50,040 bases of DNA from a virus. Lineage: Duplodnaviria > Heunggongvirae > Uroviricota > Caudoviricetes. Position 1 is the stretch's first letter. Each line of letters opens with the position of its first letter. Below, in pieces: positions 10,982-11,958 of the stretch. The translations under genes were made by a program, and so were the position numbers. The stretch lies in the IMG/VR virus record IMGVR_UViG_2529293039_000013. One strand, 5' to 3'. The notes below the pieces were generated by a model, which did no database searches, was not told the origin of the DNA, and saw only the letters and a program-made list of their open reading frames with translations.

Positions 10982-11635
10982 ATGAGTAATAAATATTGCC
11001 AGGCGCTGGTAGAACTGCGGAACAAACCAGCCCATGAACTGAAGGAAGTGGGCGATCAGTGGCGCACGCCGGACAACATTTTCTGGGGAATTAACACCCT
11101 GTTTGGCCCGTTTGTTCTGGATCTGTTCACTGACGGTGATAACGCCAAATGTGCTGCGTATTACACGGCGGAAGACAACGCGCTGGCGCATGACTGGTCA
11201 GAACGCCTTGCGGAGCTTAAAGGTGCTGCCTTTGGTAATCCCCCATACAGCCGCGCCAGTCAGCATGAGGGGCAATACATCACCGGCATGCGTTACATCA
11301 TGAAGCATGCCAGTGCCATGCGTGATAAAGGCGGGCGCTATGTTTTCCTGATCAAAGCTGCCACCAGCGAAGTGTGGTGGCCGGAAGATGCAGATCATAT
11401 TGCTTTTATTCGCGGGCGTATTGGTTTTGAACTGCCTGCCTGGTTTATCCCGAAGGATGAGAAGCAGGTGCCGACAGGCGCTTTCTTCGCTGGTGCTATT
11501 GCTGTTTTCGACAAGACCTGGAAGGGACCGGCAATCAGCTACATCGGGCGCGATGAACTTGATGCATGTGGTGAGGCCTTTCTGGCGCAGGTTCGCCAGC
11601 AGGCAGAAAAACTGGTCAGGGAGATGGTGGCATGA
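10982..11635 (+). CDS. phage DNA N6-adenine methyltransferase (Dam-like)
   Basis: NPPY catalytic motif (FGNPPYSR); start taken at internal MSNKYCQALVEL. Confidence 0.8.
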   Translation: MSNKYCQALVELRNKPAHELKEVGDQWRTPDNIFWGINTLFGPFVLDLFTDGDNAKCAAYYTAEDNALAHDWSERLAELKGAAFGNPPYSRASQHEGQYITGMRYIMKHASAMRDKGGRYVFLIKAATSEVWWPEDADHIAFIRGRIGFELPAWFIPKDEKQVPTGAFFAGAIAVFDKTWKGPAISYIGRDELDACGEAFLAQVRQQAEKLVREMVA

Positions 11636-11958
11636 CGACGTTAACTCAATGCCAGCAGCAGGTGCTGGATATGCTGATTTCTTATCAGAAAGAACGTGGC
11701 TTCCCGCCAACCAATCAGGAGGTGGCAACCATGCTGGGATACCGTTCAGTGAATGCAGCGGTGGAGCATCTTCGCGCACTGGAGAAAAAAGGCGTCATCA
11801 CGATAAAGCGTGGCGTGGCCCGGGGCATCACGCTTCATACCGCGGTGAAGGACGACGACAGCGAGGCGGTCGGGATTATCCGCTCACTGCTTGCCGGTGA
11901 GGAAAACGCCAGGCTGCGTGCAACCCACTGGTTACATAAGAGGGGCCTGAAAGTATGA
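11632..11958 (+). CDS. LexA N-terminal DNA-binding-domain protein lacking peptidase domain
   Basis: LexA-like winged-helix N-terminus (LTQCQQQVLDMLISYQKERGFPPTNQEVATMLGYRS); only 108 aa. Confidence 0.55.
   Translation: MTTLTQCQQQVLDMLISYQKERGFPPTNQEVATMLGYRSVNAAVEHLRALEKKGVITIKRGVARGITLHTAVKDDDSEAVGIIRSLLAGEENARLRATHWLHKRGLKV

Follow-up and report, generated by a model that had tools for sequence, protein, structure and literature searches.

Our analysis of a 50,040-nucleotide stretch of viral DNA (class Caudoviricetes; IMG/VR record IMGVR_UViG_2529293039_000013), called the window below in its full length, centres on a small gene between dam, which encodes a phage N6-adenine methyltransferase, and rusA, which encodes a Holliday-junction resolvase. 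We use lexD and LexD as working names for this open reading frame (ORF; positions 11632-11958) and its 108-amino-acid product. The prophage in the window is a lambdoid element like those of the Shiga toxin (Stx) phages, and no stx genes are present in the window. LexD is, judged from its sequence, a phage-encoded LexA homologue without the S24 peptidase domain, and its distinctive features are a conserved helical tail and a retained set of LexA-like contact residues.

Residues 1-65 of LexD match the Pfam family PF01726 (LexA_DNA_bind) from end to end (model positions 1-65 of 65; 69 bits with a cutoff of 23.7, E=2.9e-19), and residues 1-108 match positions 1-106 of the 106 in the model of PHROG 362 ('transcriptional repressor'; E=1.3e-59). 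These whole-model matches above threshold place LexD among the PF01726 / PHROG 362 proteins. The solved structures nearest to it are E. coli LexA chains (1lea, E=6.9e-16); hhalign with E. coli LexA gives a probability of 99.3, with 45% identity over 86 aligned columns, and the profile alignment pairs LexD 1-90 with LexA 1-86. The AlphaFold (AF2) model of LexD (predicted local distance difference test score, pLDDT, 76.7) has LexA's three helices (residues 6-22, 28-35 and 40-52) and two-stranded wing (strands 56-58 and 66-68), and Foldseek lays it on 3jso_B, a chain of a LexA-DNA complex, to within 1.2 Å over 67 residues with 51% identity. LexD has no match to PF00717, the S24 peptidase domain; its chain stops at residue 108, and rusA begins 4 nucleotides before the stop. 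LexD covers positions 1-91 of the 203 in TIGR00498, the lexA equivalog model, with a score (70.7 bits) under the 110.95 cutoff, so that by this score and by its lack of the S24 Ser/Lys dyad it would fall outside the LexA repressors proper. The original prediction, a DNA-binding domain of LexA with no peptidase domain, is thus upheld, as is the structural likeness to the LexA N-domain on which it was to stand or fall. PADLOC returned only a weak match to a CARF winged helix-turn-helix model (E=3.6e-4), and a link to defence systems was dropped.

The residues with which LexA contacts DNA are S39, N41, A42, E44 and E45 (PMC3091678). LexD keeps four of the five, and E44 is replaced by V; its recognition helix (amino acids 38-52) reads RSVNAAVEHLRALEK where that of LexA reads RSPNAAEEHLKALAR, compared in the alignments as RSVNAAVEHLRAL and RSPNAAEEHLKAL, respectively. 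R64-G65-I66 of the wing and K53-G54 are retained as well, and P40 of LexA is V in LexD. Residue frequencies in the family were taken from 153 distinct members found in viral contigs; S39 occurs in 100% of them, N41 in 99% and A42 in 97%, and K53 and R64-G65-I66 are likewise conserved at 97% or more. Neither the S-x-N-A core of the helix nor the wing varies, which makes a core half-site shared by LexD and LexA probable; binding of CTGT-N8-ACAG SOS boxes by a LexD dimer is plausible.

The original description of the product as resembling only the N-terminal domain of LexA overlooked a conserved C-terminal helical hairpin. Beyond a linker (pLDDT <50 at residues 71-75) whose length varies across the family alignment, residues 75-103 are modelled as two amphipathic helices, 75-87 and 93-103, with pLDDT 84-86. 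A97 and L101 are invariant in the 153 relatives, hydrophobic character is held at positions 83, 86, 87 and 100, and homologues as distant as 38% identity retain the tail. In a sister subfamily, the ratio of nonsynonymous to synonymous substitution rates (dN/dS) is 0.10 in the DNA-binding domain and 0.25 in the tail, with an overall value of 0.15. The tail therefore has the marks of a conserved module under purifying selection, and the modelled hairpin probably serves as a dimerisation module in place of the S24 domain. lexD is a genuine gene, given the overall dN/dS of the sister subfamily and the length and start that are kept in homologues down to the same 38% identity. A functionless, decaying remnant of a captured lexA might also look like the equivalent of LexA 1-86 with 18 residues added, and many frameshifted or fused copies are found in databases, but with that ratio, that conservation of length and start, and presence in 41% of complete E. 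coli genomes (below) we consider such a remnant extremely improbable.

The tail can also be aligned, weakly, with the hinge and cleavage-site region of LexA (LexD 78-90 on LexA 74-86; LLAGE vs VAAGE), which puts A88-G89 of LexD, a protein with no catalytic domain in cis, opposite A84-G85 of LexA; confidence in this part of the alignment is low. The likeness bears on an explanation in which LexD modulates the SOS response through protein contacts, by pairing with the host LexA N-domain on DNA or by binding LexA, RecA or a phage protein with its tail. Such a role would accord with the roughly 1000-fold stabilisation of the LexA dimer by the N-domain/N-domain interface on DNA (PMC3159453), with the presence of dinI, the gene of a RecA modulator, in the same operons as lexD in Klebsiella-type relatives, and with a 158-amino-acid variant (the L083 type) that keeps the DNA-binding domain and the ATGA junction with rusA but has an unrelated 85-residue domain in place of the tail. 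The family, on the other hand, does not conserve the A-G pair (S, E or A at position 88; G at 89 in 104 of the 153), and together with the low confidence of the alignment this makes the explanation an improbable one.

The gene for the 158-amino-acid variant (positions 6001-6477 in L083-L090) lies downstream of a gene for a 673-residue Dcm-like methyltransferase, and its C-terminal domain belongs to PHROG 29443/24920 and has no Pfam match. Five metagenomic proteins of 140-222 amino acids (P0128, P0136, P0138, P0140 and P0143) carry a tandem pair of LexA domains without S24; they look like single-chain pseudo-dimers, which would be an alternative route to two reading heads. The exchanged tail and the tandem chains are both consistent with a need for two such heads.

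Table 1. Features of the lexD locus and its presumed promoter (positions in the window).
Feature	Position	Strand	Basis
lexD, 108-amino-acid S24-less LexA-like protein	11632..11958	+	ATG-started ORF
Winged helix-turn-helix domain, amino acids 1-69	11632..11838	+	AF2, Foldseek, hhalign
Recognition helix, amino acids 38-52, RSVNAAVEHLRALEK	11743..11787	+	alignments to LexA
Acidic flexible linker, amino acids 70-74	11839..11853	+	low pLDDT, length variation
C-terminal helical hairpin, helices at amino acids 75-87 and 93-103	11854..11955	+	AF2
Shine-Dalgarno-like GGGAG (11619-11623) and dam/lexD ATGA overlap	11619..11635	+	read from sequence
Shine-Dalgarno-like AAGAGGGG (11938-11945) and lexD/rusA ATGA overlap	11938..11958	+	read from sequence
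dam, phage N6-adenine methyltransferase, upstream neighbour	10982..11635	+	PF05869 E=2.2e-45, TIGR01712 E=5.2e-76
rusA, Holliday-junction resolvase, downstream neighbour	11955..12344	+	PF05866
pR-like promoter TTGACA-18-TACATT, upstream of cro	7351..7380	+	promoter scan

LexD is 97-99% identical to SfV orf42, mEp460_046 and its counterparts in Stx2a and Stx2c phages, the cdtI phage and SfIV; among the matches the copies of SfV, mEp460 and the Stx2a/Stx2c phages are 99% identical, and that of E. coli C9 has 100% nucleotide identity. At 95% nucleotide identity or more, lexD is present in 2233 (41%) of the 5426 complete E. coli genomes, in up to 4 copies per genome. It has been named before, as a 'LexA family transcriptional regulator' by PGAP and as a 'LexA DNA binding domain protein' in mEp460 (mEp460_046), so sequence-based annotation had already catalogued it and it is not new as an object; what is new here is the conserved helical tail, the kept LexA-like contacts and the SOS-wired contexts of its relatives. 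A tblastn search with LexD of 50,697 phage records found matches in enterobacterial phages only. Stand-alone LexA domains as such are widespread in viral proteomes, from many hosts.

Both junctions of lexD have the form ATGA: the dam TGA stop (11633-11635) overlaps the lexD ATG (11632-11634), and the lexD TGA stop (11956-11958) overlaps the rusA ATG (11955-11957). The claim that lexD is translationally coupled between dam and rusA stands as far as these overlaps go; the coupling itself is what they would suggest. The same 4-nucleotide overlap with the following gene is present in 82 of 99 distant loci. In two subfamilies, with 90 viral loci between them, lexD is always followed by rusA, immediately in 82 and, in the other 8 (the L083 type, with the longer lexD), likewise abutting by ATGA, but in the wider family RusA is next in 46 of the 99 loci, and otherwise a 67-residue protein or another gene takes its place, still joined by ATGA. 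Phage RusA records are diverse (322 of 409 are <60% identical), and a LexA-like neighbour is listed for none of those sampled. SfIV has an intact lexD beside a rusA pseudogene; its rusA (L093, 3824-4219), which GenBank KC814930 leaves unannotated, is interrupted at codon 34, a TGA stop where the window has CGA. The gene upstream of lexD varies among relatives (Dam, MT-A70, Dcm or PerC/YfdN), and dam is not part of the lexD unit. The lexD-rusA pairing is clade-specific, and with the RusA survey and the 46 of 99 loci a functional coupling to RusA is ruled out as a general rule. Given the variable upstream gene and the clade-specific rusA, we read dam-lexD-rusA as packing of the nin region and not as a functional complex. 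An explanation in which LexD assists RusA, the methyltransferase or both in DNA metabolism, for instance as a protein that bends or targets DNA so that junctions can be resolved, and is not a transcription factor, would draw on the constant order in the 90 loci and on the methyltransferases of one family or another that lie upstream in several lineages; the clade-specific pairing, the intact lexD beside the SfIV pseudogene and the normality of overlaps in this operon render it highly improbable.

The prophage switch includes a CI (6663-7316, minus strand) with HTH_3 and Peptidase_S24 domains, a P22-type Cro and a CII-like CP76 protein, and the order of the genes around and beyond lexD is Dam, RusA, KilA-N, DUF968/HNH and Q antiterminator (PF03589). 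Genes are packed tightly from 9375 to 12344, and overlaps are usual throughout the operon. A promoter scan of the + strand found no promoter-like site between 9984 and 12345, the nearest being at 9955-9984 and 12345-12372; the pR-like promoter upstream of cro is the presumed source of the lexD transcript. At least one intrinsic terminator, that of isrK (8635-8656), lies between pR and lexD. With no nearer promoter-like site and with termination after pR, LexD is expected only together with the delayed-early genes, in lytic development.

Other features of this prophage were seen along the way. Two clusters of ATGTAGGATATCCTACAT-type palindromes (6548-6600 and 7332-7379) flank cI, and the pR-like promoter overlaps the right-hand one; they are presumably the OL-side and OR operators for CI and Cro. 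A 24-nucleotide inverted repeat (8246-8294, 79% complementary, 1 nucleotide between the arms), past the CII-like gene and before isrK, could be an RNA structure or a terminator- or nut-like element. The 386-amino-acid 'ORF' at 8218-9378 is mostly non-coding and contains Rfam matches to isrK (8578-8654, 62 bits) and to a P1/P7-type C4 antisense RNA (8679-8766, 81 bits), followed by a Phage_pRha antirepressor-like gene at about 8821-9378; in mEp460 the whole stretch is labelled as one 'regulatory protein Rha' coding sequence. We interpret this stretch, between the CII-like and replication genes, as an immI-like, RNA-controlled antirepressor module. The replication-region protein encoded at 9892-10887 has a TEITTEITTEITTE peptide repeat (10400-10470), which implies a short in-frame tandem DNA repeat whose copy number may vary between phages. 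Downstream of Q, where Stx phages have stx, the region 15439-19218 begins with tRNA-Met(cat), tRNA-Arg(tcg) and tRNA-Arg(tct), after which come a TerB-domain gene (16383-16886), the small RNA STnc100 (17058-17227) and a gene for a DUF1737/SASA esterase of the nanS-p type (17365-19218); the lysis genes are also downstream of Q.

SOS boxes were scored with a 20-bp matrix whose consensus agrees with the one quoted in PMC7556043 and on which the reference sites score 12.2-27.8 bits. Relatives of lexD repeatedly lie beside strong boxes. SfIV and 186 E. coli genomes, including O104:H4 C227-11, have, 0.3 kb after lexD, a box of 22-24 bits (TACTGTATTTATGAACAGTA/G) in the spacer of 162 bp that separates rusA from a KilA-N gene, and the L083 lineage has one of 16.8 bits at its rusA/KilA-N junction. 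The Klebsiella-type (P0132) subfamily, whose proteins are members of PHROG 362 with the same tail and whose closest isolates are Klebsiella phages, has a box of 17-30 bits 0.4-2.3 kb upstream of the gene on the same strand at all 28 loci. At L111 the box overlaps a -10 element after a terminator hairpin and is followed by the operon dinI - orf101 - lexD - orf67 - DUF968, and at L099 the order is terminator, SOS box, orf82, lexD. Such SOS-box-headed operons are seen in the relatives of this type (28 of 28) but not in the window, where lexD sits inside the pR operon.

Eight loci of Klebsiella type (L112, L115, L118, L119, L121, L122, L125 and L132) have at least two near-perfect SOS boxes upstream of the dinI-orf101-lexD operon, mostly about 480 bp apart (near -1280 and -797, counted from helix 3); there are three in L115, at -2482, -1997 and -1980. 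The multiple boxes suggest two successive LexA-controlled promoters. In related prophages, near-consensus boxes (CACTGTTTATATATACAGTA, 25-27 bits) also occur at L023 (2430-2449), L029, L013, L015, L060, L061 and L046; that of L023, the only one of this set inspected, lies within a CI-type repressor coding region about 3.6-3.9 kb upstream of lexD. Small proteins flank lexD in the SOS-box operons, one of PHROG 1813 (L111 3589-3894, L099 3713-3961) and one of PHROG 1212 (L111 4324-4527). By analogy of position, the PHROG 1813 protein, which stands where the Gifsy prophages have their antirepressor and is unrelated to it in sequence, is a candidate for a new antirepressor family.

The explanation that we put first, at a probability of roughly 0.4, is that LexD is a small, RecA-insensitive LexA surrogate, made in lytic growth, that re-occupies LexA-type operators. 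The tail hairpin would dimerise LexD instead of S24, and the dimer would read inverted CTGT-type half-sites. The gene would be transcribed from pR, and only with the delayed-early (nin-region) genes, after cleavage of the S24-type CI or after infection, at a stage when RecA* is destroying host LexA, and LexD could then re-occupy LexA operators in trans. Cleavage weakens the affinity of LexA for DNA and exposes residues that target it to the proteases ClpXP and Lon (PMC3159453). Its targets would probably be the SOS regulon of the host and, in co-resident elements, modules for antirepressors, colicins or toxins under LexA control; in sister prophages with lexD in an SOS-box operon, LexD would feed back negatively on the promoter of that operon, in the way that LexA controls its own. 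Since the prophage's own switch is a cleavable CI that responds to RecA directly, its induction would go ahead in spite of a LexA-type repressor that cannot be cleaved: the non-cleavable lexA3 (Ind-) allele abolishes induction of the Gifsy prophages, whose antirepressor is LexA-controlled, and not that of Fels-1, which is of the CI-cleavage type (PMC3121763).

A further possibility, which we hold to be doubtful, is that LexD serves as a device of competition between prophages and against the SOS response, a RecA-proof stand-in for LexA that re-silences the SOS regulon once the CI switch has fired. It would then silence SOS-induced toxins and repair and, above all, the antirepressor, colicin and lysis modules of rivals, and in the relatives with SOS boxes it would form a negative-feedback loop that caps antirepressor expression.

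Several observations weigh against a LexA surrogate. The search for SOS-box-like sites proposed with the original prediction gave no credible box in the whole window, the best site scoring 9.4 bits and none reaching 12, short of the reference range, on a matrix that draws on 31 E. coli sites. Exact CTGT-N8-ACAG matches occur in the window at 8321, 21059 and 43696, two of them in coding sequence, and were rejected as SOS boxes on their low matrix scores (6.1, -1.7 and 4.9 bits, respectively). Position 44 is never E in the 153 family members, and position 45 is E in 43%, D in 29%, A in 14% and L in 9%. The L type, at 17 loci, is found exactly at those that lie behind perfect SOS boxes, so that the box may serve host LexA only. 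A Citrobacter allele (P0086) that is 64% identical to LexD has a rewritten recognition helix, RSVNTIAGHLRAL, as if the specificity of the family were evolving and not imitating one unchanging site of the host. The half-site spacing that LexD reads would depend on the geometry of its dimer. Our full-text literature searches found no experimental study (binding, dimerisation or expression) of any family member. One-mismatch matches to CTGT-N8-ACAG are in excess in the window (28 vs 15.9 +/- 3.8 in shuffles), which we attribute, as an assumption, to CTG/CAG-rich codon usage. The original idea of an uncleavable protein that binds SOS boxes thus fares unevenly: it is plausible in view of the four shared contacts, the RGI of the wing, the fold and the SOS contexts of relatives, and it is weakened by the lack of a credible box in the window, the loss of E44, the variable position 45, the Citrobacter allele and the precedent of gp6 of the Bacillus tectivirus GIL01.

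That precedent belongs to the main rival explanation, in which LexD is a phage-specific transcription factor with an operator of its own, unlike that of LexA, and its LexA likeness is a matter of ancestry only; its role would be to repress or to activate some promoter of the phage, for instance to time a nin-region, moron or late function. GIL01 gp6, a truncated LexA homologue, recognises a palindrome other than the LexA box and switches on the late promoter P3 (PMC6182141). Positions 44-46 of helix 3 fall into discrete allelic types (AEH, TDM, VAH, ALH, VEH and ASH), which with the variability at 45 would suit a private specificity, as would the common occurrence of stand-alone LexA domains in viruses of many hosts. 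At the Citrobacter locus RusA and DUF968 are 87-90% identical to those of the window and the divergence stops exactly at the borders of lexD, so that LexD outpaces its neighbours there in the pattern of a specificity determinant. Yet no candidate operator for such a factor was found: the inverted repeats in 6300-15800, the CI/Cro-type palindromes and the 8246-8294 hairpin among them, include none that is LexA-like, and a survey of CTGT-Nx-ACAG spacings at 73 loci and palindrome scans within subfamilies gave only signals that shared ancestry explains, as with CACTGACTGGCATGCCAGTG, whose place in the DUF968 coding span is constant. The S-x-N-A core and the wing are invariant, a gp6-like late activator would be needless in a phage whose late genes use the Q antiterminator, and the repeated placement of lexD beside or inside SOS-box units is left unexplained. 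On balance we regard a private regulator as rather unlikely; contacts with other proteins, an accessory role for RusA or Dam, and a dead remnant are all less likely than either it or the surrogate.

If the surrogate explanation is true, a factor able to uncouple SOS expression from DNA damage after prophage induction is present in nearly half of E. coli strains, among them strains with Stx2a- and Stx2c-converting phages and the O104:H4 outbreak lineage, and this would bear on the induction of Shiga-toxin phages by antibiotics, on SOS mutagenesis and on which prophage wins in polylysogens. Should LexD have its own operator instead, it would be the second independent case, after GIL01 gp6, of a captured LexA domain used as a private regulator, a smaller result scientifically. 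As a sequence feature lexD is ordinary and already annotated, and the hypothesis is cheap to test.

LexD is the same protein as SfV orf42, mEp460_046 and the PHROG 362 members, with no difference. Its functional model would be the lexA3 (Ind-) protein and the LexA 1-84 fragment, operator binders that resist removal by RecA*; the lexA3 product is a host protein of full length, S24 dimer included, whereas the chain of LexD extends beyond the point that corresponds to the cleavage site and ends in a structured tail. The Gifsy dinI-antirepressor-irsA operon (PMC3121763) has its layout matched by the terminator-insulated, SOS-box-headed lexD operons of Klebsiella type. LexD is not Gifsy irsA, since the ORF in the irsA position of Gifsy-1 (STM2620, 200 amino acids) gave no BLASTP match to it; orf82 of L099 likewise has no BLASTP match to the ORF in the Gifsy-1 antirepressor position and was rejected as its equivalent. 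The DinI homologues and GIL01 gp7 act on the RecA or LexA proteins and are not LexA-like DNA binders.

The only studied phage protein of this kind that we found in the literature is GIL01 gp6, which is, like LexD, a LexA DNA-binding domain without the peptidase in a temperate phage, and which is produced from early transcripts once LexA repression is lifted (PMC6182141). Unlike LexD, gp6 has only a 14-residue extension, K38, a palindrome of its own and a role in late-promoter activation (PMC6182141), while LexD has a LexA-like contact set and a helical hairpin, in a phage whose late genes are under Q antitermination. Beyond LexA ancestry, no relation between the two was detected, as the tblastn search of all the phage records gave no tectivirus. 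With E. coli LexA (1LEA, 3JSO), LexD has in common the winged helix-turn-helix, S39, N41, A42 and E45, and the RGI of the wing; it lacks Ser119/Lys156, RecA*-dependent self-cleavage and the dimer interface of S24, and it differs in its 30-residue helical hairpin, V40 and V44, and in being encoded by a phage, in the nin region. LexD is a lineage independent of gp6, and its own nearest solved relative is E. coli LexA.

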